A stretch of 64,000 nt of DNA from an uncultured Gemmatimonadales bacterium (GCA_963798845.1 CAWCUS010000005.1:224001-288000); one strand, 5' to 3'. Positions 1-35,465 are shown, counted from the first letter of the stretch. Translations and numbers: made by a program. The notes: generated by a model not told the origin, from the letters alone.

Positions 1-1935
1 CACGACGCCCCGGTCCGAGCCGTAGTCGCGGTAGACGCCGGCGACCGGAAAGGGCTCCAGTCCCGCGGGCGTTCGCAGGCGCACGGTGTCCCCCACTTCC
101 ACGCCGGCGTGGTACGCGAACGGCTCGGAGACCATGAGCACCCGCCCGGCCACGAAATCGCTCCAGAACGCGTTCACGTCACCGGCCAGAAACGTGAAGT
201 GGTACCTCAGCCGCGAGTCGTTCCCGATCGCCATCAGGTCCACCGGTCCCCGGGCACTCGCCACCTCTCCCCGTCGGTAGCGGCGCACTTCCGCCACGGC
301 GGGATCGGACACGATGGCGTGCACCGCGGCCAATGCGATGGCCACCGGAGCGCTTCCGCTCGGCTGCATCGGCGCCACGTAGACGTCCGCGGAGAGCGTC
401 CGATCGAGCCAGCGCACGACGCTCCCCCGGAAGCTCCCGATCATCACGGCCACGCCGATCGTGACCGACACCGCGATCGTGAGCGTCGCGACCGCCGGGC
501 CTGTCCGGCTGAGCCCCGCGATCACCCCGCCTGCCGCCATCCGCCCGAGCACGCCGAAAACCGCGCCCGCCGCCGGCTTCAGCGCCCGCATGAGCACGAC
601 CGTGGCCAGCGGGGTGAGAAGCGAGATCCCGATGATGACGCCGAACAGGCCCACGAAGCTGCCGTCCACGCCGCCGGACACCTTCAGCACGAGCCCGCCC
701 GCGGCGGCGAGCCCCAGCCCGGCGGCGGAAACGAGCGGGAGTCGCCGGCGAAGCCCGGTCTCCAGCTCGGACCTCAGGAGCGCGGCCCGGGGGTGCGTGG
801 TGGCGGCTTCGTACGCCGGTGGCAGCGCGGCCAGGAGGGTGCCGCCGATCCCGAGCCCGAGCGCCTTCGCCACCGTGATGGGCGAAACGATCAGCTCCCT
901 CACCGTGACCACGAAATAGAGGTCCTGGATGGTCCGGGTTACCAGGCGGAGCAGCCCCTCGGCCAGCAGGAAGCCGAGCCCCGTCCCCAGGACCACGCCG
1001 GCCACGGCCAGGAACGACGCCTCCGCCAGCACCAGGGCGAAGACCTGGCCGCGCGTGGCGCCGAGAGCGCGAAGCGTTCCCAGCAGCCTGCGTCGCTGCA
1101 CTACCGAGAACGTCACGCTGTTGTAGATGAGGAACAGGCCGAAGATCAGCGCCAGCAGGCTCAGCGCGCGCAGGTTGAGGTCGAACGCCCGCGTCATGTC
1201 CCGCAGCTGTCCGGCCGCAGCGCCCGACTGCCGGAGCTCGGCACCCCCGGGCAGCGCCGCCTCCACTCGCGCGGCGGCCGAATCACCGGACAGGATCAGG
1301 TCCACCCGGTCGAGCCCACGCCGCCGCAGCAGCGCTTCCGCCGTTCCCACGTCCAGCAGGAGGAGGTTCTCCAGGCCGAGACGGCTTGCTTCGTCCGCCG
1401 GCTCGAGCAGCGCGACAATGCGCACGCTGTCGCGCCGGCCGCCCACGTCGAGCGCCAGCCAGTCCCCCTCCCCTACCCCGAGCGACGCGGCGGTGCCGCG
1501 GCTCACCATCCCCGCTGACACGCCGATCAGCAGCGGCGCCGCCGGACGCTCCGCCTCGCCACCCGTGTATCGGCGGAACGGTGCTTCCGAAAACGGGTCC
1601 ACCCCCAGTACACGGAGCGCCTCCCCGGACGGGAGCGCGGCGACGTCTCCTTCCACCACCGGGGCCGCCGCGTCCACCCCGGGCACCGCGCGCAGCCGGG
1701 CGAAGGCGGTGTCCGGGATGCCGCCAGGACCGCCTACCGCCTGGTGAGTGGCACGCCCCGCCACGGTCTCGGCCGACAGCGTGAAGCCGCGGCGCGCGCT
1801 GGAGACCGCCATGTCCACCGACAGCACCACGGCCACGCCGAGCCCGACCCCGACGATCGAAAGCGCCGTCTGCCAACGGTGGTGCCAGAGGCCGCGCCCG
1901 CTCGACAGCCACAATGTGCTCAAGCCCGCCCTCAC
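1..1935 (-). CDS. FtsX-like ABC transporter permease (partial, runs off the left edge)
   Basis: Not in the ORF track because no stop lies in the window. GTG at 1935 overlaps the TGA of the ATPase gene. Manual translation [43 protein letters not shown]..., later [45 protein letters not shown], is typical of MacB/FtsX permeases. Confidence 0.88.
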
Positions 1936-2785: not shown

Positions 2786-2989
2786 TCACACCAGCAGGCG
2801 CTTCGTCAGCAGCGCGGCCACGGGCGCCACCAACAGGGCGCTCAACGCCAGCCCCGGCCGCGTGGTCACCAGCGCCTTCGCGCCCTTCGCGGCGATCAGC
2901 AGCTTCGCGCCTTTCACCGGGTGACGGACCATGTACGTCGCCTTCGGTGCCTTCGTGTAGCCGATCAAGGTCACGATCTTGCCAAGCAT
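2786..2989 (-). CDS. Small basic protein with hydrophobic C-terminus (67 aa)
   Basis: GGGAGG RBS close upstream of ATG at 2989. MLGKIVTLIGYTKAPKATY...; followed by a hairpin. Confidence 0.7.
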   Translation of the reverse strand: MLGKIVTLIGYTKAPKATYMVRHPVKGAKLLIAAKGAKALVTTRPGLALSALLVAPVAALLTKRLLV

Positions 2990-3070
2990 GTTTCCTCCCA
3001 CGGTTGCGGGGTCGAATTCCGGGTTCGCGTGCCCCCAAACGAGTGCAAGCTCCGTGCGAGGTAAAAGCGG

Positions 3071-3481
3071 CTAAAACCCCCACGCGCCTCGCGTTATCAG
3101 TTCAAGGCTGTTCCCGTCCGGATCCCGAAAATAGACCGAACCGCCGCCGTTCGGCCACGTCTGTTCCCGCTCGATCGCCACGCCCGCCATGCGCAGGTGG
3201 CGGCGCCACGCGTCCAGGGTCTCGGCGTCGGGGACATCCAGCGCGACGTGGCCGGGGCCCTCGGCGCCGTGGGGAGGGACGTCGCCGCCCGGCTCGGCCG
3301 TGGCGCGGGCGTCGAACAGGAGGAGGAGATCGCGACCAGCGCGGAAGAAGACGTGGCGTCCCGACTTGCGTCCGATGAGCTGGAGCCCGAGGCGTCGCCA
3401 GAAGCGCTCGGCGCGGGCCAGATCGTGGACGTAGAGGGCTGCCTCGTGGATGCCGCCGAGGGGTGGGTGGATCTCTGCCAT
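3071..3481 (-). CDS. VOC / glyoxalase family protein
   Basis: C-terminal part of ORF 3071-4051: IHEAALYVHDLARAERFW...GHVALDV...SVYFRDPDGNSLEL. ATG lies 2 nt after the upstream stop. Confidence 0.9.
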   Translation of the reverse strand: MAEIHPPLGGIHEAALYVHDLARAERFWRRLGLQLIGRKSGRHVFFRAGRDLLLLFDARATAEPGGDVPPHGAEGPGHVALDVPDAETLDAWRRHLRMAGVAIEREQTWPNGGGSVYFRDPDGNSLELITRGAWGF

Positions 3482-3483
3482 GG

Positions 3484-4422
3484 CTACACCACCGGTGTGA
3501 GGAGGGGCTCTCCGCGGACGCCGCGCAGCAGGTTCTGCCACGCGAGATCGAACATGGCCTGCCGTGTCTCGCGCGTGGCGCTGCCGACGTGCGGGAGGAG
3601 GACGACGTTGTCGAGCGTCAGGAGCGCCGGCGGGACGCGGGGCTCGTCGGCGTAGACGTCCAGGCCGGCGCGGAGGCGGCCGGCCGCGAGCTCGCGCACG
3701 AGGGCGTCCTCGGCCACGACGTCGCCGCGCGCCGTATTGACCAGGACGGCGCCGTCCCGGAGCGCGGCCAGCACGACGGCGTCGACGATGCCCCGGGTCT
3801 CCGGCGTCGACGCGAGGGTGACGGCGAGCACGTCGGCGCGTTCGGCCAGCTCCGTCAGCGCCGGGACCCACTCGGCCCGGATCTCCCTCTCCCAGTGCGG
3901 GCGACGGCTGCGTCCCCAGTAGGCGACGCGCATGCCGAATGCGCCGGCCCTGCGGCCTACCTCGCGGCCGATCCGCCCCGCACCAATGACGCCCAGCACC
4001 TTTCCGTCCAGTCCCGTTCCCATGAGCTGCGTCGGCCCCCAGCCGCCCCACGCACCCGACCGAACCAGCCGCTCCCCCTCCCCCACCCGCCGGACGACGG
4101 CCAGTATGAGCGCCCAGGTCAGCTCGGCGGTCGCACCTGTCAGTACGTCGGGCGTGTTGGACACGGCGATCCCGCGCATGCGAGCTGCGTCGGTGTCGAC
4201 GTTGTCGTAGCCGACGGCCATGTTCGCGATCACGCGCAGGTCGGGAAGCCGGTCCATCTCCGCGGACCCCAGTCGCCGGGTGAGCAGCGGCAGCACGCCC
4301 ACGTGCGGACCTCCGGCGGGGACCGGCTGCTCGGGCTCGAGCAGGTCGACCGCCACATCGTCGGGATGATCGTGGGCGGCGAGGAAGGTGGCCACTTCGG
4401 CCGAAACGAGGACCCGGCTCAC
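3484..4422 (-). CDS. D-isomer 2-hydroxyacid dehydrogenase (glyoxylate reductase / D-glycerate dehydrogenase-like)
   Basis: AVGYDNVD, NTPDVLT..TAEL, GAGRIG, NTARG, GLDVYADEP, LPHVGSAT. GTG overlaps the tadA stop. Confidence 0.92.
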   Translation of the reverse strand: MSRVLVSAEVATFLAAHDHPDDVAVDLLEPEQPVPAGGPHVGVLPLLTRRLGSAEMDRLPDLRVIANMAVGYDNVDTDAARMRGIAVSNTPDVLTGATAELTWALILAVVRRVGEGERLVRSGAWGGWGPTQLMGTGLDGKVLGVIGAGRIGREVGRRAGAFGMRVAYWGRSRRPHWEREIRAEWVPALTELAERADVLAVTLASTPETRGIVDAVVLAALRDGAVLVNTARGDVVAEDALVRELAAGRLRAGLDVYADEPRVPPALLTLDNVVLLPHVGSATRETRQAMFDLAWQNLLRGVRGEPLLTPVV

Positions 4423-4895
4423 CGGCGGGCGCGGAAGAAGGCGCGAAGCAGATCTCCGGCCTCGTCCTCGAGCACGCCGGTGGTCACGGCCACGTGGTGG
4501 TTGAGGCGAGGGTCCTGGGGGAGGGTGGCCAGGGAGCCGATCATTCCGGCCTTGGGATCGGCCGCGGCGTACACGACGCGACCGATCCGCGCGAGGACCA
4601 CGGCGCCGGCGCACATGGCGCAGGGCTCGAGCGTGACGTAGAGAGTCGCGTCGTTGAGCCACCAGTGACCGAGTCGGTCGGCGGCCCGACGCAGGGCGAG
4701 GATCTCGGCGTGCGCCGTCGGATCGTTGAGGGCGCGGGGCTGGTTGTAGGCTTCCGCCACCAGCTCCCCGCCGGCCACGACCACGGCGCCCACGGGCACC
4801 TCCTCCTCCTCGGCCGCCTTCCTGGCCTGCACGAGAGCCCGCCGCATCCAGCGCTCGTCATCAGGCTGCGGTGGGGTCGTGTCGAGCCCTTCCAT
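4419..4895 (-). CDS. tadA: tRNA adenosine(34) deaminase
   Basis: EVPVGAVVV, DPTAHAE, TLYVTLEPCAMCAGA, DPKAG, FFRARR. Confidence 0.93.
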   Translation of the reverse strand: MEGLDTTPPQPDDERWMRRALVQARKAAEEEEVPVGAVVVAGGELVAEAYNQPRALNDPTAHAEILALRRAADRLGHWWLNDATLYVTLEPCAMCAGAVVLARIGRVVYAAADPKAGMIGSLATLPQDPRLNHHVAVTTGVLEDEAGDLLRAFFRARR

Positions 4896-4896
4896 C

Positions 4897-5571
4897 TCAG
4901 CTGGCGAGAACGCTCTCGGGCAACGCCTTCTCGCGGGCGAGGCCGGCACGCGCGTCGGTCCGCAGGCGCCGGATCACGGCCACGACTCGGCCGAGCACGT
5001 CCACGCCGGTGCGGCGGTTGATGGCCACGGCTGCCGCCGCCGGTCCGGCCGCGGAGAGTATGGGGTCGCCCGACTCCCCGAGGTGGACCCGGCGCACCGT
5101 CGTCTCGCCGGCCACCCGGGCCACGACGATCTCGTTGTCGTCCAGACCTTCCACGGCCGCGGGCTCGACGAGGAGGAGGTCGCCGTCCCAGATCCCGGCC
5201 GCGCGCAGGCCGTCCCCGACCATGGAGATCATGAAGCTGGCGGAGGAGGCGGCGATCTTCCGGTCCAGGGTGAGGCTCTCGAGCGGCTCCTTGAGGGAGG
5301 GCTCGCGCAGGTACACGTCGATGTGCGGGATCGAGACCACGTCGGCCCCGAGATCGAGGCCCAGGAGGTGGACGCCGCGCGAGCGCGAGGAGTCCCGCTC
5401 GATCCACCCCTTGTCGGCCAGCGACTGGAGGAGCTCCGAGACGGACTTCGTGCTCTTGATGTCGAACGCCGCCCCGATGTCACGGATGGACGGCTGGTAT
5501 GTATGGCTGCGAACGTAGTCGACGAGGTAGTCGAGAACCTCGCGCTCGAGGCTGCTCAGAGCATCCGGCAT
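4897..5571 (-). CDS. lexA: LexA-family repressor with degenerate autoprotease domain
   Basis: N-terminal wHTH (QPSIRDIGAAFDIKS..SV...LQSLADKGWIERDSSRSRG) and S24-like C-terminus (GIWDGDLLLV, EIVVARVAGETTVRR, VLGRVVAVIR). Catalytic motifs are altered. Confidence 0.85.
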   Translation of the reverse strand: MPDALSSLEREVLDYLVDYVRSHTYQPSIRDIGAAFDIKSTKSVSELLQSLADKGWIERDSSRSRGVHLLGLDLGADVVSIPHIDVYLREPSLKEPLESLTLDRKIAASSASFMISMVGDGLRAAGIWDGDLLLVEPAAVEGLDDNEIVVARVAGETTVRRVHLGESGDPILSAAGPAAAAVAINRRTGVDVLGRVVAVIRRLRTDARAGLAREKALPESVLAS

Positions 5572-5573
5572 AG

Positions 5574-5646
5574 TTGCCCCTCCTGGGATCGAACCAGGAC
5601 TCTCCTGATCCAGAGTCAGGCGTGTTGCCGATTACACCAAGGGGCA
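5574..5646 (-). tRNA. tRNA-Gln (anticodon CTG), CCA not encoded
   Basis: Minus strand TGCCCCT...CCTGA-CT-CTG-GA-TCAGG...CCTGG-TTCGATC-CCAGG-AGGGGCA-A gives a full cloverleaf with a U1:A72 pair, followed by CTA rather than CCA. Confidence 0.97.
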
Positions 5647-5685
5647 GAGCACGCGCGCGGCTCCATCACCGAATCGCGGGAAGGG

Positions 5686-5714
5686 ATCGTAGAGACGGCC
5701 CGTCCAGGTGTCAA
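5686..5714 (-). promoter_or_regulatory. sigma70-type promoter for tRNA-Gln/lexA/tadA
   Basis: TTGACA (5714-5709, overlapping the gltX TGA), 17 nt spacer, TACGAT (5691-5686). Confidence 0.8.
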
Positions 5715-7174
5715 CCGGCCGAGGACAGCGCATCGAGGCGAGCCGCGGCAACGTCCAGTCGCGCCAGCGTCCTTTCACGGCCCATGACGACCAGGACCTC
5801 GAAGATCCCGGGGGAAACGGCCGCTCCCGTCACGGCCACGCGCACGGGGTGGATGAGCTTGCCGGCCCCGACCTCGAGATCCCCGGCGAGCTGGCGCAGC
5901 GCGTCCTCGAGCGGCTGCTCCTCCCAGAGGTCCAGGGCGGCATAGGCCTCAGCGAGCCGGCGCAGCCGCGCGGCCACATCGGCCGGCTCCCTGGCCCAGT
6001 GCTTCTGCACGGCGTCCTGCTCGTACGCGACCTCGTCGACGAAGTAGGGGCGCGCCTGCGCGATGATGTCGTCGATCGTGCGCGCCCGCGGCTTCAGGAG
6101 GTCGATGAGCGACAGGAGCCACGGCCGCCGCTGCGCCAGCTCTCCCGGCGCGGCGAGCCCGGCGGCCGCCAGGCGGTCGACGACCAGCGGCTCGAGCCGC
6201 TCCGCGCTGGCCGCGCTCAGGTACTGGCCGTTCAGCCACGCCAGCTTGTCCGTGTCGAACACAGCGCTCTTCTTGCCGATACCCTCAAGCGAGAAGCGGC
6301 CGGTCAGCTCTTCCAGCGACATGAGCTCGGTGTCGTCGCCCGGGGACCAGCCGAGGAGCGCCAGGAAGTTGACCATGGACTCCGGCAGGATCCCCTCCTC
6401 CCGGTACTGCCCCACGGCCGTGGCGCCGTGGCGCTTGCTCAGCCGCCTGCCATCACTCCCCAGGATCATCGGCACATGGGCGAACGTGGGGATCTGCCAG
6501 CCGAGGGCGTCGTAGAGGAGGATCTGCTTCGGCGTGTTGGACAGGTGGTCGTCGCCCCGGATCACGTGCGTGACACCCATGTCGTGGTCGTCGCTCACCA
6601 CGGCCATGTTGTAGACAGGCGTGCCATCGCTGCGCAGGACGATGAAATCCTCGATGTCGCCGTTGTCGAAGCGGGTATGCTCGTGCACGGCGTCGTGCCA
6701 CGCCGTTTCCCCCTCCGGCACTGCGAAGCGGACCGTGTACGGCTGGCCCGCCGCCGCCCTCCGCTCCGCTTCCTCCGGCGACACCGTGAGCAGGCAGCGC
6801 CGGTCGTACCGGTAGCCCTCCCCCTTCTCCTCCGCTGCTCGCCGCCGTTCGTCCAGCGATTCGGGGGTGCAGAAGCAACGGTAGGCGCGCCGATTCTCCA
6901 GCAGCCGAACCGCATCACGGCGGTGACGCTCGAGCCCGTCCGCCTGGTGGTGCGGTCCCTCGTCCCAGTCCAGGCCCAGCCACTCCATGCCGTCGAGGAT
7001 GGCCTGGGTCATGGCGTCGCTCGAGCGCTCGCGGTCGGTGTCCTCGATCCGCAGGATGAACGTCCCGGCGTGGCGCCGCGCGAACAGCCAGTTGAACAGC
7101 GCCGTGCGCGCGCCCCCCACGTGCAGGTACCCGGTCGGCGACGGCGCGAAACGCACCCGGACCTTCTCGCTCAC
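5711..7174 (-). CDS. gltX: Glutamate--tRNA ligase
   Basis: VRVRFAPSPTGYLHVGG (HIGH), LRIEDTD, HVIRGDDH, RLSKRHG (KMSKS), anticodon-binding domain. GTG start after a G-rich RBS. Confidence 0.97.
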   Translation of the reverse strand: MSEKVRVRFAPSPTGYLHVGGARTALFNWLFARRHAGTFILRIEDTDRERSSDAMTQAILDGMEWLGLDWDEGPHHQADGLERHRRDAVRLLENRRAYRCFCTPESLDERRRAAEEKGEGYRYDRRCLLTVSPEEAERRAAAGQPYTVRFAVPEGETAWHDAVHEHTRFDNGDIEDFIVLRSDGTPVYNMAVVSDDHDMGVTHVIRGDDHLSNTPKQILLYDALGWQIPTFAHVPMILGSDGRRLSKRHGATAVGQYREEGILPESMVNFLALLGWSPGDDTELMSLEELTGRFSLEGIGKKSAVFDTDKLAWLNGQYLSAASAERLEPLVVDRLAAAGLAAPGELAQRRPWLLSLIDLLKPRARTIDDIIAQARPYFVDEVAYEQDAVQKHWAREPADVAARLRRLAEAYAALDLWEEQPLEDALRQLAGDLEVGAGKLIHPVRVAVTGAAVSPGIFEVLVVMGRERTLARLDVAAARLDALSSAG

Positions 7175-7214
7175 CCCCCCTCCTCGCCCCTGCCCCGTTC
7201 CCACCGCTCCGCCA

Positions 7215-7997
7215 TCATTGGCCCCGACGACGTCGTTCGCGCCCCCGGCCCCGCTCCAGCCTCGCCTCGTGCCGCTCACGAACCCCCTCGACGCGCGCCT
7301 GGTGTCGGTCCACGTGACGCTGGAGCCGGTTCTCGTTGCGCGATACCGGGTCCTCCCGCGAGCCGCGCGTGTCGCCCCGCTCCCTCACCTTGATCGATAC
7401 GCCACCCATGAGGGCGAATCCGCTGATCCGGATCACGGGCGCGTCCGGCGGCGGATCGTTGTTCAGCTCCGACACCTGGTCGAACCCGCCCAGCAAAGCG
7501 AAGCCCTGTGTCTCCACGTGCACGTCGGGCGGTACGGTGATGTCCACGCCGCCCCAGAATGCGAAGCAGTTGATCTCCGTCACGCCCTGCCGAAGCACCG
7601 CATCCCGGAAGTCCAGCTCCACGCCCCCCATCACCGCCGCCACCATCATCTCCGACGGCGGCGCCCACCGGCCCGCCCGCCGCGTCCCGCCCATGATGGC
7701 GATGGCTACGTGCCCCGCTTCGTGGATCGCCTGCGTGGAGCGCGCCGGCGTGGAGCGCGCCGGCGGGTCCCGCTCCGGCGGCCGCTGTGCTTCCTCCCGC
7801 ACGGCCGGCGGCGACGGCGCCGGGGCGTTCAGGTCGGCCAGCAGCGCATCCAGCTGCTGTCGGCTTTGCGCCGTACGGGCACGCTCCAGCCGCCGCTCCA
7901 GCTCGCCCAGGGAAAGGGCGTCGTCGGCGAAGCGGCGGCAGAGCGCGTCGATCGTGTCCTCGCGCGCGGTCTGGAGCCCCGTCAGTCGATCGTTCAT
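7215..7997 (-). CDS. DUF1707 (SHOCT-like) plus LiaF/DUF2154-like protein
   Basis: N-terminal RE..IDAL...FADDALSLGELERRL...LDALLADL, followed by repeated MGG/WGG beta units (MGGVELDFR, FWGGVDITVP, ISGFALMGGV). Confidence 0.8.
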   Translation of the reverse strand: MNDRLTGLQTAREDTIDALCRRFADDALSLGELERRLERARTAQSRQQLDALLADLNAPAPSPPAVREEAQRPPERDPPARSTPARSTQAIHEAGHVAIAIMGGTRRAGRWAPPSEMMVAAVMGGVELDFRDAVLRQGVTEINCFAFWGGVDITVPPDVHVETQGFALLGGFDQVSELNNDPPPDAPVIRISGFALMGGVSIKVRERGDTRGSREDPVSRNENRLQRHVDRHQARVEGVRERHEARLERGRGRERRRRGQ

Positions 7998-26992: not shown

Positions 26993-29900
26993 ATGCGGCC
27001 GCCGCGGTCGCTTCCGCCTTCGCCAAAGGACGATGCTCTCGATGACGGTGCAGCAATAGCGTTCCCGCGCCTACAGGCCTTGCTCCGGCCGGCCCCGACA
27101 TCCGGCCGGGACGAGCTCCTGGCCGGCCCGATCCGCGGTGCGCTTCTCGGCACCGATCAACTCGCCGAAAAGGCCCGCAACGTCGCCCGGCGCGAACGCG
27201 TGCAGCTCCCCCCGCGGTCCCGCCGAGAGGGCGCCCTCCTCCTCCGGCTGGCCGAGACCCGACGCATCCTGGACGATGGGCACGCGGCGCTGTCGGCAGG
27301 CGCGGCCCGAGACGTCGACGTCGGTCCGGCGGGCGAATGGCTGTTGGACAACTTCCACATCGTGCGGGAGCACATGCGGGAAGTGCACGAGGCGCTGCCG
27401 CGCGGCTACTACCGTGAGCTGCCCGAGCTGGCGAGCGGGCGGCTGGCCGGACACCCGCGCGTGTACGAGCTCGCGATCGCGCTGATCTCCCACTCCGAAG
27501 CGCGCATCGACCTCGACAACCTGGACCTCTTCGTCTCCGCCTACCAGTCCGTCGCGCCCCTCGCGATCGGGGAGCTGTGGGCGTTGCCCGCGATGTTCCG
27601 GATCGCGCTGATCGAGAGCGTACGGCGCATGACGCTGCGGACGATGCGCCGGATGAGGGAGATCGAGGAGGCGGACGCCTGGGCACTCCGCATCGAAACC
27701 GCGAGCGAGCAGGGGGAGGACGAACTGGGGCAGGCACTGGATGCTTTCGTCGAGGCGCCGCCGCGCCTGACCGAGGTATTCATTGCCCGCTTCCTGCACC
27801 AGCTTCGTCTGACCCGGGGCGCATACCTTCCGCTCGTCGAGATCGAGGAATGGATCAGCGAGCGCATGGTGAGCGACGAAGTGGCGTCGGCGAGGGCGGC
27901 GCACCACCTGGCCCTCACGCAGGTCATGATGGCCCACAGCATCACGAGCCTGCGCACGATCGCACAGCTGGACTGGCGAGTGTTCGTCGAGCGGCACAGC
28001 GCGCTGGAGGCCGTCCTGCTCACCGACCCCGCAGGGTACCATGCACGCATGACGTTCGCCACGCGTGACCACTACCGCCACGTGGTCGAGCGCATCGCGC
28101 GCCGGACGCGTCAAGCGGAGGAGGACGTGGCGCGTGTGGCCGTGGACCTGGCCCGCGCCGCGTCCCAGGACCACGGGCCGGAGCACGTCCGATCCCACGT
28201 CGGCTACTACCTCGTGGACGACGGGCTCCGGGAGCTGGAGGCCGTCACCGGATACCGACCGCGCGTGCGGGAGGCCGTCCACCGCTGGGTGCTGCGGCAC
28301 CCGGACGCCGCGTTCTCCATGAGCTTGCTCACCGCCTTCATGGCAGCACTCGCCGCCGTGCTGTGGCTGGCCGGGCCAGGGGCCCGCGGCGCATGGATTC
28401 CGGTCCTCATCCTCGCGCTCATCCCGGCCAGCCACGTCGCCATCGTCGTGGTCGACCAGCTGGTCACGGTGCTGCTTCCGCCGCGCACGATCTCCAGGCT
28501 CGACCTCAGCCTTCGCGACGGCGTACCCGCGGAGTTCCGCACTGCCGTGGTCGTGCCCGCGCTGTTCGACAGCGTGGCAACCGTCGACGAAGCGTTCGAC
28601 CACCTCGAGGTCCAGTTCCTCGCCAACCGGGGAGCGCACCTGCATTTCGCCGTCCTGAGCGACTTCACCGACGCGGCGGAGGAAACCTGCGAGGATGATG
28701 CCGCGATCGTCGCTGCCGCGGTGGCGCGCGTCCACGACCTCAACGACCGCTACGCTCCCCGGAGTCGGGATGCCTTCCAGCTCTTTCATCGGCCCCGCCG
28801 CTGGAACGCGCGACAGGGCGTCTGGATGGGCTGGGAGCGGAAGCGGGGCAAGCTGGCTGATTTCAATCGCTTCCTGCGCGGTGGCGCGGGGGGTGCGTTC
28901 ACCACCATCGCCGGCAACGTGGAGCCGCTGGGCGCGGTCCGGTACGTCATCACGCTCGACGCCGATACCGTGCTGCCGCCCGGCAGCGCCGCGGAGCTCA
29001 TCGGCACCTTGGCGCACCCGCTCAATCGCGCCGTGTACGACCCGCAGCGCGGCCGTGTGGTGCGCGGCTACGGCATCCTCCAGCCGCGCGTGGGCGTCAC
29101 TCTTCCCAGCGCGCACCGATCCCACTTCTCGTTCATCCATTCGGGGCACCCGGGCGTGGATCCGTACACGACCGCCACGTCCGACGTGTACCAGGACCTG
29201 TTCGGCGAGGGCAGCTTCACCGGGAAGGGCATCTGACGATGTCGATGTGTTCGACCAGGCGACCCACGGTCGGTTCCCCGAGAACACTCTGCTGTCGCAT
29301 GACCTGATCGAGGGCAGCTACGCCCGCGCGGGGCTCGTCACCAGCATCATGGTCTACGACGACTATCCCTCGCGTTACCTCACGTTCACCCGCCGGAAGC
29401 ACCGCTGGATACGCGGCGACTGGCAGCTGCTCCGCTGGCTGTCGTCGCGCGTGCCGGGGCCGGACGGACCTGAGGCCAACCGGCTGCCGATCCTTTCGCG
29501 CTGGAAGATCTTCGACAACCTGCGACGCAGCACGGTGGAGATCGGGCTGCTGGTCCTTCTCGCCTCCGGCTGGCTGCTGCTCCCGGGCTCCATGCTGGTC
29601 TGGACCGCGCTGGTACTCGCCATCGTCGCCGCGCCCTGGATCGTCTCACTCCTGCTCGCCGCGCTGCGCCCCCCGCTCGACCGTTCGTGGCGGGCCTACT
29701 ACGCGTCCGTCGCTCGCGACGCGGGGACGGCCGCGCGACAGCTCGTCCTGGCTATCGCCTTCCTGCCCCACCAGGCGTGGGTGTCGGCCGATGCGATCCT
29801 CCGCACACTCTGGCGCCTGGGGGTCACGAAACGCCACCTGCTCGAGTGGCAGACCGCGTCCGCGGCGGAACGCGACGCGGGTACCGCCCGCGCCCGCGTG

Positions 29901-32900
29901 TGGCGAACGATGTCGCCGGCGGCGGCAGTCGGGGTGGCCCTCGCACTCAGCGCAATGGCTCGGGCGGCCGGCACGGGCTCGTCCGCGCTCTGGTGGACCG
30001 GCGTGCTGGTTGTCGGCTGCCTGGCCGTCCTGTGGGCCGCGTCGCCCGCCCTCGCCCACGCCCTCGACCGGCCGACCGCGCCACGGCGCCGGCAACTCAC
30101 GGCGGGACAGGCCGCCACGGCAACGGATCTCGCCCGGCTGCACTGGCGCTACTTCGACCGCTTCGTCGATGCTGGCACGCAGTGGCTGGTGCCGGACAAC
30201 GTGCAGGAAGAGCTCGGGGCCGCCGTCGCCATGCGCACCTCGCCCACGAACATCGGCCTCCAGCTGCTCGCAATCGGCAGCGCCCGCGACCTCGGATTCA
30301 TCACCTCCGAAGACATGACGCGGCGGCTGGAGCTGGTGTTCCGGGCCCTCGAACGCATGCGGCGCTTCCGCGGGCACTTCTTCAACTGGTACGACCTGCA
30401 TGATCTGGGCGTCCTCGAGCCGGCGTACATCTCGACCGTGGACAGCGGCAACCTCGCAGGCCATCTGCTGGCCATCCGGCAGGCCTGTCTGGATGCGCGC
30501 CCGGAGCCAGGGCAAGACGAAGGAGCAACCGGCCCCGCGCTGCGCGCCCGCCTGGACGCGCTCGCCGACCGCGCCGGCGACTACGTGGCCGAGATGGACT
30601 TCCGGTTCCTTTTCGACGAGGAGCGCGAGCTGTTCTCCATCGGCTACCAGCTCGCCAGCCAGTCGCTGGATGTTTCCCACTACGACCTGCTCGCGTCGGA
30701 GTCGCGGCTCGCGAGCTTTGTCGCGGTGGCGAAGAACGACGTGCCCCTCGACCACTGGTTCCGGCTCGGTCGCTCGTTGACCCACGCGTCGGGCGCCACC
30801 GCGCTCGTCTCCTGGAGCGGCAGCATGTTCGAGTACCTGATGCCAGTGCTCGTCATGCGCTCCCTTCCGGCAACGCTCCTCGATCAGACCTATCGCGGTG
30901 TGGTCCGGCGACAGATCGCCTACGGCGCCCTGCGCAGCGTGCCCTGGGGCGTGAGCGAGAGCGCGTACAACCTTCGGGATCATCAGCTCACGTATCAGTA
31001 CCGAGCGTTCGGCGTGCCGGATCTCGGCCTCAAGCGCGGGCTCGGACGGGACCTCGTCATCGCCCCGTACGCCTCCGCCCTGGCGCTGCTGGTCGAACCG
31101 GACCGCGCTCTGGCCAACCTCTCGGTGCTCGCCGGGTTGGACGCCCTCGGGCCCTACGGCTTCCGCGACGCCATCGACTACGCCCGGCCGGATCCAGGCG
31201 AGGACCACGCAGTGGTCCGCAGCTACATGGCGCACCACATCGGCATGAGCCTCGCCGCGCTGACGAACGTGCTCACCGACGACGTGTGGCAACGACGGTT
31301 CCACTCCGATCCCCTCGTGCAGTCGGCCGAGCTCCTGCTCCACGAGCGGATCCCGCGCCGCCTCGTGCTGCAACCGGCGAGAGCGGCCCGCGCCGCCGGG
31401 GCGCTGCCGCGCCCGGAGGCCGAGAACCAGGCCGTCCGCGAGCTCACCGGGCCGGACACCCCGCGGCCGCACGTCGCGCTGCTCGGCCGTCAGCCCTACA
31501 CCGTGATGGTGACGCACGCCGGGTCCGGATTCTCCCGGTACGAGGACATCGCGGTCACCCGCTGGCGCGCTGATGGCACCACGGACGCGATGGGCCAGTT
31601 CTGCTACGTGAGGGACGTGACAGGGGAGCGGGTGTGGTCGACGGCCCACCAGCCGGTGTGCGCTCCAGCCGATGCATACCGGGCCCTGCTCGCCAGCGAC
31701 CGCGTAACCTTCAATCGCGCCAATGGAGACATCGAGACGCGCACCGAGATCACGGTGGTTCCCGACGACGCCGCCGAAGTGCGCTGCGTGACGGTCACCA
31801 ACCACGCGCCTGAGCTGCGGGAGCTCGAGCTCACGAGCTACGGCGAGGTGGTGCTCGGTCCGCCGGAGGCCGATCGCGCGCATCCCGCGTTCGCCAACCT
31901 GTTCGTCGAGACGGAATGGCACGAGTGGTGTTCGGCGATCACCGCCACTCGGCGGCCCCGGTCCGCCGCGGAGCCCTCGCTCTGGTGCGTCCACGTGATG
32001 GACGCCGGTACCGCGCGGGTCGGACCCGTGTCGTACGAGACGGACCGCGCCCGCTTCATCGGCCGCGGCCGCACCACCCGAGCACCCGCAGCTCTCGACG
32101 GTCCCGGTCCGCTCTCGGGCACCACCGGCGCCGTGCTAGACCCGATCTTCGCGCTCCGGACGCGGCTCCGACTCGCGCCCGGAGAGTCTGCCACCGTCAC
32201 CTTCACCACGCTGGTCGCCGCCACGCGCAAGGCCGCGTTCGAGCTGGCCGACCGGTATCACGATTCGCATGCGGCGCAGCGCGCCCTCGACCTGGCATGG
32301 GCGTCCCAGCAGGTGGAGCTGCGCGAGCGGGACCTGACGCCCGCCGACGCCGCCATCTTCCAGGAGCTCGCCGGCTGCCTGCTCTATCCCCAGCGGGATC
32401 TCCGCGCCACGCCGGAGGAAGTACACCGCAACCGCGGGGCCCAGCCGCTGCTGTGGTCCACCGGCATATCCGGTGACCGGCGCATCGTCCTCGCCACCCT
32501 CGAGGGTACGGACGGTCTGCCGACACTGAGACAGGTGGCGGCCGCGCATCAGTTCTGGCGCCGCCGCGGCCTCATCGTGGATCTGGTCATCCTCTTCACG
32601 CAGCCCGCGTCCTACCTGAAGGAGCTGCAGGACCGGATCATGGAAACGCTGTTCGCCATTGGCGGCACGGACCTAGACCGGCCTGGCGGTGTCTTCCTCC
32701 GCAACGTCGAGTCGCTGGACCCGGACACGCTGCTCATGCTCCGCGCCACGGCCCGGCTCATCCTCCCGTGCGACGGGCGGTCGCTCACGCACCTGGACGC
32801 CCTGCTCGTGGAGCCGACGACCGTCTCCGCCGACCTCGACCCGGCGCCACCCGCGACAGGGCCGCGGATCCTCGAAAGACAGGACACGACCCCTGTCGCC

Positions 32901-35465
32901 CTGGATCGCTGGACTCACGCCCGGCCGCCCGCGCCGGCGAACGCAGACCTCCCGCCCCGGGAGCCCCCCAGCACACCCGATGCGGCTGCGCCCTCGTCCC
33001 TCGTGGATGAGCCCCACGCCGTCGACCCGCACCGCGCGGAGCTCATGTTCGACAACGGGCTGGGCGGCCTCGACCCGAAGGGGGACTACGTGATCCGCGT
33101 CGCGGGCGACGCCCTGCCGCCGGCGCCCTGGGTCAACGTCGTCGCGAACGAGCGCGGCGGGTTCATCGTCAGCGAGCGTGGCGCGGGCTGCACCTGGGCG
33201 GAGAGCAGCTATTTCTTCCGGCTGACGCCATGGCACAACGATCCGGTCAGCGACCCGATCTCCGACGTCCTCTTCTTGCGGGACGAGGCGTCCGGCGATC
33301 TGTGGAGCGCCACGCCCGCGCCGCTCGGGCACGATACCGAGTACACCGTCCGGCACGCGGCCGGCGCGTCGGTGTTCGAGGCCGAGCGGAACGGGATCGC
33401 CACCCGCCTCACGCTGAGCATGGCCGCCGATGAGCCGGTACGGTTGTCCCTCCTCCGGATCACCAACGGCGACGCCGTCGAGCGGCGCATCGGGCTGACA
33501 GCATACGTGGAATGGACGCTCGGCGCACAGCGCGAGGTCACGCAGCACCACGTGCGCACCGCGTTCGAGCCGGCGCTCGGAGCGGCTTTCGCCCGCAATT
33601 ACTTCGACCCGCAGTTCCACGGCCACGTCGCGTTCTGCGCCGTGAGCGAGCCGATCACCGGCAACACGGGGGACCGCCGCGAGTTCCTCGGCCGAAACGG
33701 GACGGTGCAGCGGCCCGCCGCCTTCCGGGGCCAACAGCTCTCCGGAGCGACGGGTACCGGCCTCGACCCCTGCGCCGCGCTCCGGTGCGTTCTCGTTCTC
33801 GCCCCTGGCGAGTCCCGCGAGGTAGCGGTGTCCCTCGGCGCGGCCGGCACCGAAACGGAAGCGCGCCAGCTCGCGACCCGGTTCCGCAGCGTCGACGCCG
33901 CCACGGCGTCCGTCGCGCGCACCATCGAAGAGTGGCACCAGCGCCTGTCGGTCATCACCGTGCGCACCCCAGATCCGGCGTTCGACGCCCTGCTCAACCG
34001 CTGGCTGCCATACCAGACGCTGTCCTGCCGCATGTGGGCCCGTTCCGCTCTCTATCAGAGCAGCGGCGCCTACGGATTCCGCGACCAGCTCCAGGACGCT
34101 CTTGCGTTCGTCCACGCGGAGCCCGCGCTGGCACGCGAGCACATCCTGCGCGCCGCCGCCCGCCAGTTCTGCGAGGGCGATGTCCAGCACTGGTGGCATC
34201 CCCACACGGGCGCCGGCGTGCGCACCCGCTTCTCCGACGACCTCGCCTGGCTGCCCTGGGTGGTCGATGAATATGTCACCCGGACCGGCAATGGCTCAGT
34301 ACTCGGGGAGTACGTGCCCTTCCTGACCATGCGTCCCCTGGAGCCGGGGGAGGGCGAGATCTATGACGTGCCTGGCACCAGCGACGAGCACGGCAGCGTC
34401 TACGAGCACTGCCTGCGCGCGCTCCGGCGCGCGTGCACGTCGGGCCCCCATGGCCTGCCGCTCATTGGCACTGGCGACTGGAACGACGGCATGAACCGCG
34501 TCGGCGTCGAGGGGCGGGGGGAGAGCGTATGGCTCGCCTGGTTCCTCATCGCGACGCTGCGCTCCTTCGCCGTCCGGGCCGCGGAACGCGGCGACGACGA
34601 GGTGGCCGGCGAGCTGCGCGGCCAGGCCGACCAGTACGCGGCGGCCGCGGAAACACACGGCTGGGACGGCGACTGGTACCTGCGCGCGTTCTTCGACAAT
34701 GGCACGCCGCTCGGCTCCAGCCGGAGCGACGAATGCCGCATCGACTCCATCGCCCAGAGCTGGAGCGTGATCTCCGGCGGCGGCGCCCCGGAGCGCCAGG
34801 CCCGCGCCATGCGCGCGCTCGAGGAGCACCTCGTGGACGAGGACGCTCGGCTGATCCGGCTCCTCACGCCCCCATTCGACAAGGCGCCGCGCGATCCAGG
34901 CTACATCAAGGGCTACCTGCCCGGCGTGCGGGAGAACGGCGCCCAGTACACCCACGCCGCCGCCTGGGCCGTCCTCTCCACGGCACGCTCGGGCGACGGC
35001 GGCCGCGCCTTCGACCTGTTCCAGATGCTCAACCCGCTGCTGCGCACCCGGACACCCGAGGACGTCGAGACCTACAGGGTCGAGCCGTACGTGATCGCGG
35101 CGGACGTCTATACCGCGCCCGGACACGTCGGCCGGGGCGGCTGGACCTGGTACACCGGCGCCGCGGGCTGGATGTACCGCGTCGGTCTCGAGGCCATCCT
35201 GGGCTTCGACCGCCGCGGCGACGTGCTGCGCATCGCGCCCCGCGTGCCCCTCGCGTGGCCCGAGCTCACAATCGACTACCGCTTCGGCAGCGCGCGATAC
35301 ACGATCGTCGTGGACGAGCCTGGCAGATTCACCGACGGCACCCGGGCGGAAGTGACGCTCAATGGCCGCGTCCTCGAGGGTCCCGACATCCACCTGGTGG
35401 ACGACGGGATGGTGCACCACGTGCTCGTGCGCCTCCCGGCCCCGAGGACGCATACTGCCGCGTAG
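26993..35465 (+). pseudogene. ndvB: Cyclic beta-1,2-glucan synthase (Cgs/NdvB/ChvB-like, GT84 + GH94) with a +1 frameshift at 29235
   Basis: EWLLDNF, WMGWERKRGKL, VITLDADT, GEGSFTGKGI|YDVD, LLSHDLIEG, RWIRGDWQ, QSSGAYGFRDQLQD, GDWNDG, ENGAQYTH, GWTWYTG. Deleting G29235 gives a single 2823-aa ORF. Confidence 0.9.

Follow-up and report, generated by a model that had tools for sequence, protein, structure and literature searches.

The tRNA-Gln gene and the start of lexA

The stretch of DNA considered here (referred to below as the window) comprises 64,000 nucleotides from an uncultured Gemmatimonadales bacterium (GCA_963798845.1, CAWCUS010000005.1:224001-288000). The subject of this study is a junction on its minus strand, at which a glutamine tRNA gene is separated by only two bases from the start codon of a gene encoding a LexA-like repressor (called lexA here for brevity). 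The 64 kb window contains a single tRNA detected by ARAGORN, at 5573–5646 (-) and called as tRNA-Gln(ctg), and Rfam RF00005 matches 5574–5646 (-) over model positions 1–71 of 71, scoring 64 bits where the gathering score is 29 (E 6.6e-13); this is the sole Rfam match across the whole window. The tRNA-Gln gene occupies 5574–5646 (-), with its CUG anticodon at 5613–5611 and its discriminator at A5574, and CCA is not encoded. On the minus strand, the 3' strand of the acceptor stem (5581–5575) and the discriminator are followed by C5573, T5572 and the ATG of lexA (5571–5569), such that the position of CCA is occupied by CTA and the start codon stands there in part. The C of the two-base CT spacer between the discriminator and the ATG (5572–5573 (-)) is position 74 of the tRNA.

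A perfect AGGAGG, a candidate Shine-Dalgarno sequence, lies at 5579–5584 (-) and corresponds to tRNA positions 63–68, drawn from the 3' strand of the T-stem and the 3' strand of the acceptor stem. It is separated from the ATG by 7 nucleotides (nt; 5578–5572), which falls inside the range of 4–9 nt for Shine-Dalgarno-led initiation, and it is the only candidate Shine-Dalgarno sequence that lexA has. As the start codon stands 2 nt past the discriminator, the tRNA must serve as the leader and ribosome-binding site of the LexA-like gene.

This anatomy depends on the assignment of the start codon. The open reading frame (ORF) at 4897–5571 (-) encodes a protein of 224 amino acids with winged-helix and S24 domains (Pfam LexA_DNA_bind PF01726, 58 bits, residues 5–66; Peptidase_S24 PF00717, 43 bits). 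The next in-frame ATG, GTG or TTG is codon 78, beyond the DNA-binding domain, and upstream there is no in-frame ATG, GTG or TTG before a TAA at -63, so that an alternative start codon for lexA can be ruled out. In an alignment of 24 homologues picked from the best 120 of 704 hits, M1 is invariant; 23 of the 24 proteins begin there, with MPxPL(T/S)xLER, and one has a 22-residue extension. The closest homologue among the matches listed, P0002, is 80% identical. The ATG at 5571 is, judged on the reading frame and its homologues, the correct and only usable start of lexA.

Upstream of the tRNA, a sigma-70-type promoter, TTGACA-17-TACGAT, was identified at 5686–5714 (-) by a promoter scan (10 of 12 matches). 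It is the sole promoter-like site in 2800–7600, where 0.1 would be expected from shuffled sequences. Transcription would start near 5679, as judged from the position of the -10 element, and the promoter and the sequence together predict a 5' leader of about 33 nt for the tRNA precursor (5647–5679 (-)). By its criteria, the scan revealed no promoter inside the tRNA, nor any terminator-like site on the way from the promoter to lexA. At the level of motifs, the arrangement is therefore that of the tufB type, with one promoter before the tRNA and neither a terminator nor a second promoter before lexA. Given the one upstream promoter, the lack of a terminator, of an alternative start and of an internal promoter in these scans, the sequence supports the tRNA as the only possible 5' untranslated region (UTR) of lexA.

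All that the first-pass annotation had described in the sequence at this site was recovered by these analyses. A near-consensus TTGACA-17-TACGAT ahead of tRNA-Gln is indeed present at 5714–5686 (-); the CTG anticodon, the discriminator at 5574, the ATG 2 nt further on and CTA in place of CCA were all found again in the sequence and by ARAGORN and Rfam; and the sequence bears out the perfect AGGAGG at 5584–5579, made of T-stem and acceptor bases and ending 7 nt before the ATG. A true lexA start further downstream, which the annotation had named as something that would speak against its reading, was not found, given the position of the next start codon (78) and the invariance of M1. The gene order lexA-tadA-dehydrogenase-VOC that it had proposed was corroborated by Pfam and NCBIfam matches, as described below.

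The transcription unit and its surroundings

Four genes follow the tRNA in a packed unit. Downstream of lexA lie tadA (4419–4895 (-)), encoding a tRNA adenosine-34 deaminase (NCBIfam NF008113, 185.2 bits, cutoff 150), a gene for a D-isomer 2-hydroxyacid dehydrogenase (3484–4422 (-); Pfam 2-Hacid_dh_C, 169.9 bits) and, as the last gene, one for a vicinal oxygen chelate (VOC)/glyoxalase-family protein (3071–3478 (-); Pfam Glyoxalase, 60.8 bits). The ATG of tadA stands 1 nt past the lexA stop, the likely GTG start of the dehydrogenase overlaps the tadA stop (GTGA), and the ATG of the VOC gene stands 2 nt past the dehydrogenase stop. There is thus no intergenic room in the operon, the gaps from tRNA-lexA through VOC being 2, 1, -4 and 2 nt. 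Terminator-like hits were returned by the scan only at 3134–3156 (-); these fall within the coding sequence of the VOC gene, specify WPNGGGSVYFRD there and are taken to be chance matches.

On the other side of the promoter lies gltX (5711–7279 (-)), which encodes a glutamate--tRNA ligase (Pfam tRNA-synt_1c, 336 bits; TIGR00464, 521.5 bits, cutoff 289.95). The gltX stop TGA (5713–5711) sits within the -35 hexamer TTGACA (5714–5709). No second tRNA-Gln was found among the RNA matches or in a scan of 35 other ORFs of the 64 kb window, to which this result is confined, and no genes for RNase Z or a CCA-adding enzyme were found among the same 35 ORFs. Elsewhere, the window holds a 2256-amino-acid ORF with GH94 supersandwich and catalytic domains and a glucoamylase-like domain (28695–35465 (+)), two resistance-nodulation-division (RND) efflux sets and two MacB-type ATP-binding cassette (ABC) sets.

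Several constraints follow from this anatomy. The lexA and tadA genes have no room for signals of their own, and their RNA must start upstream of, or conceivably within, the tRNA. Each tRNA that is matured must leave at most 2 nt before the AUG, or else destroy the message. Any RNA that still carries the Shine-Dalgarno sequence must be an unprocessed tRNA precursor.

Related loci in Gemmatimonadota

One scan of species-representative genomes yielded at least 28 related loci, all from Gemmatimonadota metagenome-assembled genomes, and 29 with that of the window; the latter is designated WIN here and the related loci L001 to L028. The tadA gene lies downstream of lexA in all 28 listed loci, and gltX lies upstream in 22 of them. 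A motif of the form TTGACN-16..18-TANNNT is present at or just past the end of gltX in 26 of the 29 loci, and it precedes the tRNA wherever a tRNA is present; the exceptions are L004 and L027, in which gltX nearly abuts lexA, and L003, in which the contig is cut off at the first tRNA base. An overlap of the gltX end with the promoter was also observed in L007, L010, L013, L014, L016, L022 and L025. The order gltX, promoter, (tRNA-Gln), lexA, tadA is widespread among the listed Gemmatimonadota loci. The repressor is set between two tRNA-related genes phylum-wide, often together with tRNA-Gln.

ARAGORN places a tRNA-Gln(CUG) between the promoter and lexA in seven of the 28 listed loci, and 20 of the 28 lack an intact tRNA here. 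The end of the tRNA is separated from the lexA start by 2 nt in L002 and in L003, by 43 nt in L028, 44 nt in L015, 106 nt in L017, 184 nt in L008 and 227 nt in L011. Each of the five spaced loci has its own GGAGG, 4–5 nt before the start codon. A GGAGG lies within 22 nt of the lexA start in 23 of the 29 loci, at 5 nt in 17 of them, at 7 nt in four (WIN, L001, L002 and L003), and at 8 nt and 4 nt in one locus each. No second promoter was found between the tRNA and lexA in scans of the spaced loci L011 and L017, and no terminator after the tRNA in spaced L008 and L011. The 106-nt spacer of L017 contains a 15-pair hairpin with a T-rich tail (3912–3946), which is a possible attenuator of read-through.

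When the tRNA-free loci were searched by nhmmer with a tRNA-Gln profile, weak matches were obtained in L009 (E 0.025) and L026 (E 0.51). Both correspond to the middle of the profile and lie about 100–150 nt upstream of lexA; they may be decayed tRNA relics. In L004 (189–197) and L027 (3988–4001), the gltX stop lies 7 nt and 12 nt, respectively, before the lexA ATG. These two loci lack both the promoter motif and a GGAGG, and lexA is probably read there as part of the gltX transcript.

The tRNA itself looks functional. Across eight orthologous tRNAs, the pairs of the cloverleaf are formed in 97.3% of the cells compared, versus 41–55% with the partners slid. Pair 27-43 is C-G in WIN and U-A in L002 and L003, although 73 of 500 shuffles gave as much, the sequences varying too little for the covariation to carry statistical weight. 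CCA is encoded in none of the eight orthologous tRNA-Gln genes, and the discriminator is followed by CT in five of the eight (WIN, L002, L003 and the spaced L011 and L015). The shared CT suggests a constraint imposed by tRNA 3' processing, perhaps the retention of C74, rather than one imposed by lexA.

The question raised in the first-pass annotation, whether the 2-nt spacing and the lack of CCA are conserved in relatives, thus has a mixed answer: none of the eight genes encodes CCA and the spacing is exact in L002 and L003, but it is constant only among the closest relatives, and in the phylum it ranges from 2 to 227 nt. This variable spacing, which the annotation had itself named as evidence that would refute its reading, together with the lack of an intact tRNA in 20 of the 28 loci, argues against the further idea of a conserved design coupling the operon to tRNA maturation.

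The abutting clade

In a maximum-likelihood tree of 29 LexA-like proteins (from a rapid search, rooted at the midpoint merely for display), WIN, L001, L002, L003 and L004 form a clade with a Shimodaira–Hasegawa-like approximate likelihood ratio test (SH-aLRT) value of 99. The spaced loci are scattered across the remainder of the tree. The exact junction (tRNA 3' end, CT, ATG) is found in three of the five members of the clade, namely WIN, L002 and L003; as L002 and L003 are independent assemblies, an assembly error does not account for the junction.

The other two members lack the tRNA. ARAGORN finds none in the 8.6 kb locus of L001, where 3906–3979 comprises the promoter TTGACA-17-TACGAT, a short WIN-like leader, the last 15 bases of the tRNA, CC and the ATG; the bases between the tRNA end and the ATG are thus CC in this locus. 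The remnant retains AGGAGG, and here too 7 nt separate GGAGG from the ATG. The nhmmer E value of this 15-mer is 1 because it is so short, and its weight rests on exact identity at the homologous position. We regard L001 as a natural deletion, in which the body of the tRNA is gone and the part presumably able to bind the ribosome has been left. L004 has neither tRNA nor promoter, and its gltX ends 7 nt before the ATG. Taken together, these loci can be read as indicating that the promoter-tRNA-Gln-lexA arrangement is old in Gemmatimonadota, and that the tRNA was lost repeatedly and the spacer deleted once.

The LexA-like protein

The name lexA, given to this gene by the first-pass annotation, holds for its winged-helix and S24 domains, but the protein falls below the TIGR00498 (LexA) equivalog cutoff (104.2 bits, against 110.95) and lacks both the Ser/Lys pair and the cleavage site of LexA. 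In E. coli LexA numbering, we take the catalytic dyad to be Ser119/Lys156 and the cleavage site to be Ala84-Gly85. Alignment to E. coli LexA (1jhf) replaces Ser119 with Gly (GMSM vs GDGL), Lys156 with Arg (TVKR vs TVRR) and Ala-Gly with Tyr-Leu. In the alignment of 24 sequences, the residue in the Ser column varies (G, S, N, H, E, A, D, T and V) and the Lys position is mostly Arg, with a few deeper-branching sequences retaining both Ser and Lys. Because the Ser column varies across the family, the Gemmatimonadota proteins look like a lineage of non-cleavable LexA relatives. With the dyad and the Ala-Gly site missing, RecA-stimulated self-cleavage of the LexA-like protein is unlikely, and it would be premature to speak of an SOS operon. 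No common palindrome that might be a LexA operator was seen by eye near the promoter in 21 aligned promoter regions, an inspection that was not a systematic test.

Predicted folding of the RNA

The first-pass annotation had suggested that the Shine-Dalgarno sequence is sequestered in the folded precursor, and folding predictions agree, the hexamer being mostly paired. For WIN its mean probability of being unpaired is 0.18 and for L002 it is 0.08, compared with 0.24–0.60 in six relatives whose leaders are of the ordinary kind. The predicted cost of opening it is 16.6 kcal/mol in WIN and 19.9 kcal/mol in L002, and 11.4–18.0 kcal/mol in the same six relatives. The G+C-rich leaders of the relatives are also structured and the costs overlap, so that folding does not decide between routes of translation. 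The cloverleaf is predicted at -28.0 kcal/mol, compared with -31.4 kcal/mol for an alternative minimum-free-energy fold, and RNAalifold also favours a non-cloverleaf fold. In the predicted fold of an RNA cleaved after the discriminator, the first 6 nt, AUG included, are unpaired. The predicted fold of the WIN transcript also contains a helix between leader and trailer around the tRNA and the start codon (5540–5660 (-)), in which the 5' leader would pair with lexA codons ~5–8; it was rejected, as it is absent in L002.

How lexA may be translated

The account that we favour, with moderate confidence in it as a whole, is that of an operon with a working tRNA gene as its first cistron: promoter, leader of about 33 nt, tRNA-Gln(CUG), 2 nt, and then the genes for the LexA-like protein, TadA, the dehydrogenase and the VOC protein. 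In the lineage of WIN, the spacer between the tRNA and lexA, which would have carried lexA's own GGAGG, may have been deleted; such a deletion would leave the 3' segment of the tRNA (A63–G68, AGGAGG) as the sole ribosome-binding site and make the tRNA the whole 5' UTR. The tRNA and lexA would be made as one transcript, and the main route of translation would be Shine-Dalgarno-dependent initiation on precursors not yet folded or processed, with each transcript being either translated or matured into tRNA. The tadA gene and those behind it would be translated by coupling, and a cleaved product beginning CU-AUG would contribute less. That lexA appears to be Shine-Dalgarno-led across the phylum (23 of 29 loci) and that L001 has kept precisely this segment both favour this route.

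The alternative deserving most attention, although we consider it the less probable of the two, is that the tRNA is excised by RNase P together with an endonuclease acting at its 3' end (RNase Z or a similar enzyme), and that the monophosphate RNA released, beginning CU-AUG, U-AUG or AUG, is translated in the leaderless manner. The tRNA punctuation of mitochondria provides a precedent. On this account, AGGAGG would, equally tentatively, play no role for as long as the tRNA exists. The tRNA is intact and CCA is absent from all eight orthologous genes, so that the tRNA can function only if its precursor is cut by an endonuclease, or trimmed, at the discriminator or close to it; the pairing predicted for the Shine-Dalgarno hexamer within the fold, the unpaired 5' end predicted for the cleaved product and the CT kept after the discriminator in five of the eight genes point the same way. 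However, lexA is Shine-Dalgarno-led in most of its relatives, and the two bases themselves are unfavourable, for two reasons that the first-pass annotation had not weighed. Within CCA as an anti-determinant of tRNase Z, a passage in a review singles out C at position 74 as the strongest element (PMC3161902), which would apply to the C74 present here. In the reporter data excerpted from a Caulobacter study, leaderless efficiency falls steeply with added 5' bases and is fitted by 0.45 x i^-0.91, from which a 2-nt leader would give about 0.24 of the full leaderless efficiency; the same excerpt states that in E. coli a single extra 5' base already inhibits leaderless initiation (PMC8459731). Initiation at the Shine-Dalgarno sequence on the precursor, which we consider about evenly balanced between being and not being the main route, is placed somewhat ahead of the cleavage route, and both may contribute.

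Two further explanations would free lexA from tRNA folding and processing, or leave the junction without bearing on the supply of tRNA. That this copy of the tRNA is redundant and in the course of being lost, now acting mainly as a structured leader, would fit with its disappearance from L001 and L004 within the clade and its absence in intact form from 20 of the 28 listed loci, which imply that the copy is dispensable in many lineages. This is nevertheless improbable for WIN: the tRNA gives a full-length match of 64 bits, its sequence is nearly identical to those of the spaced orthologues, and pair 27-43 is kept by a compensatory change. A tRNA with a CUG anticodon would also be in demand, since with 70% G+C the predominant codon for Gln should be CAG. 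Still more improbable, in our view, is a lexA promoter within the tRNA gene or its leader, from which expression would be independent of tRNA folding and processing. The first-pass annotation had named such an internal promoter as a finding that would refute its own reading. By eye, the TGgTGTAAT of the D-arm resembles an extended -10 element, but its hexamer lacks A at position 2, the scan gives no promoter-like site in the tRNA, and there is no TANNNT at a leaderless distance from the ATG. Moreover, L002 and L003 read TGTAAC, with the final T gone, so that the look-alike varies within the very clade in which the junction is shared.

Initiation at the Shine-Dalgarno sequence on the precursor must itself be set against a number of observations. 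The sequence is predicted to be paired in the folded precursor, a real tRNA with its tertiary contacts is more stable than the model, and local hairpins outpace 30S binding. L001 would show that the segment is usable once unmasked, not that it is usable while inside the tRNA. The 7-nt spacing is not independent evidence, since any abutment within a few bases gives a workable Shine-Dalgarno distance. The junction is known from three genomes and one derivative, and L004, in the same clade, has neither tRNA nor promoter. The occurrence of CT at both abutting and spaced loci hints at a constraint from tRNA processing. Co-transcription, like both routes of translation, is something that we infer from the sequence.

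As to whether the junction is a regulatory device, the variable spacing in the phylum, the absence of the tRNA from most loci and the two clade members without it favour a tolerated compaction over a selected regulatory coupling. That the fold of the tRNA acts as a translational gate, dividing transcripts between the production of tRNA-Gln and the translation of the LexA-like protein and TadA, is a speculative proposal that we consider unlikely.

Comparison with known systems

Co-transcription of tRNA and mRNA in bacteria is textbook knowledge, but the parts are separated and have their own signals. One tRNA-led mRNA operon of Escherichia coli is metY-nusA-infB; in another, tRNA-tufB, the last tRNA is followed by a spacer and a ribosome-binding site that belong to the mRNA. 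The tRNA-tufB operon (thrU-tyrU-glyT-thrT-tufB) is the closest precedent in bacteria. As excerpts of a published description indicate, it resembles WIN in that tRNAs lead the transcript into the mRNA from one promoter just before the first tRNA (PMC12439589). WIN differs from it in having 2 nt between the tRNA and the gene and a Shine-Dalgarno sequence made of tRNA stem bases.

In geometry, the closest likeness is to mitochondrial punctuation, in terms of which the first-pass annotation had cast the junction; it lies in the abutment of a tRNA on a reading frame and in the leaderless or nearly leaderless mRNA that excision would give. Unlike mitochondria, WIN is on a bacterial chromosome of the free-living type with Shine-Dalgarno-led genes, has one such junction in the operon, carries a Shine-Dalgarno sequence within the tRNA and would leave 2 nt on the product; cleavage here is hypothetical. 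Dicistronic tRNA-mRNA transcripts are reportedly present in plants, according to a grapevine preprint. In Haloferax, as outlined in part of a study on t-elements and the release of CRISPR RNA (crRNA), RNase P and tRNase Z cut tRNA-shaped parts and thereby set the ends of neighbouring RNAs (PMC4946936). These haloarchaeal and plant elements come closest to WIN in the use of RNase P and tRNase Z. Unlike the tRNA of WIN, they often resemble tRNAs without being working ones, and in no case do they supply a ribosome-binding site. As in riboswitches and RNA thermosensors, the ribosome-binding site of lexA would be locked in a stable fold, with translation competing with folding. Unlike in those systems, the fold is that of a functional tRNA that gets removed, and no conservation indicates a selected switch.

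Literature searches, covering sources available in part, revealed no bacterial coding gene that starts a few bases past a tRNA with its Shine-Dalgarno sequence inside, and nothing on the LexA of Gemmatimonadota, neither of which is proof of absence. What sets WIN apart is that a working bacterial tRNA would supply the ribosome-binding site, with the start codon in the CCA position; co-transcription of tRNA and mRNA is in itself known.

Biological significance

A working tRNA and a ribosome-binding site on the same nucleotides would place tRNA folding and processing in direct competition with the initiation of translation. In E. coli, tadA is normally essential, and here this gene depends on the same tRNA leader, with no intergenic room. 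For annotation, a coding start 2 nt past a tRNA is not necessarily mis-called. The phylum offers a natural allelic series of spaced, abutting, remnant-only and tRNA-free loci, and the system could show whether bacterial ribosomes initiate on a tRNA precursor, and whether tRNA 3' processing yields translatable near-leaderless mRNAs outside organelles. Should the tRNA fold act as a gate after all, the output of a regulator and a tRNA-editing enzyme would report the speed at which the tRNA-Gln precursor is folded, modified and cut. The junction would then amount to a bacterial form of tRNA punctuation into which feedback on tRNA biogenesis is built, and this feedback would sit beside gltX, the gene for the enzyme likely to charge tRNA-Gln.

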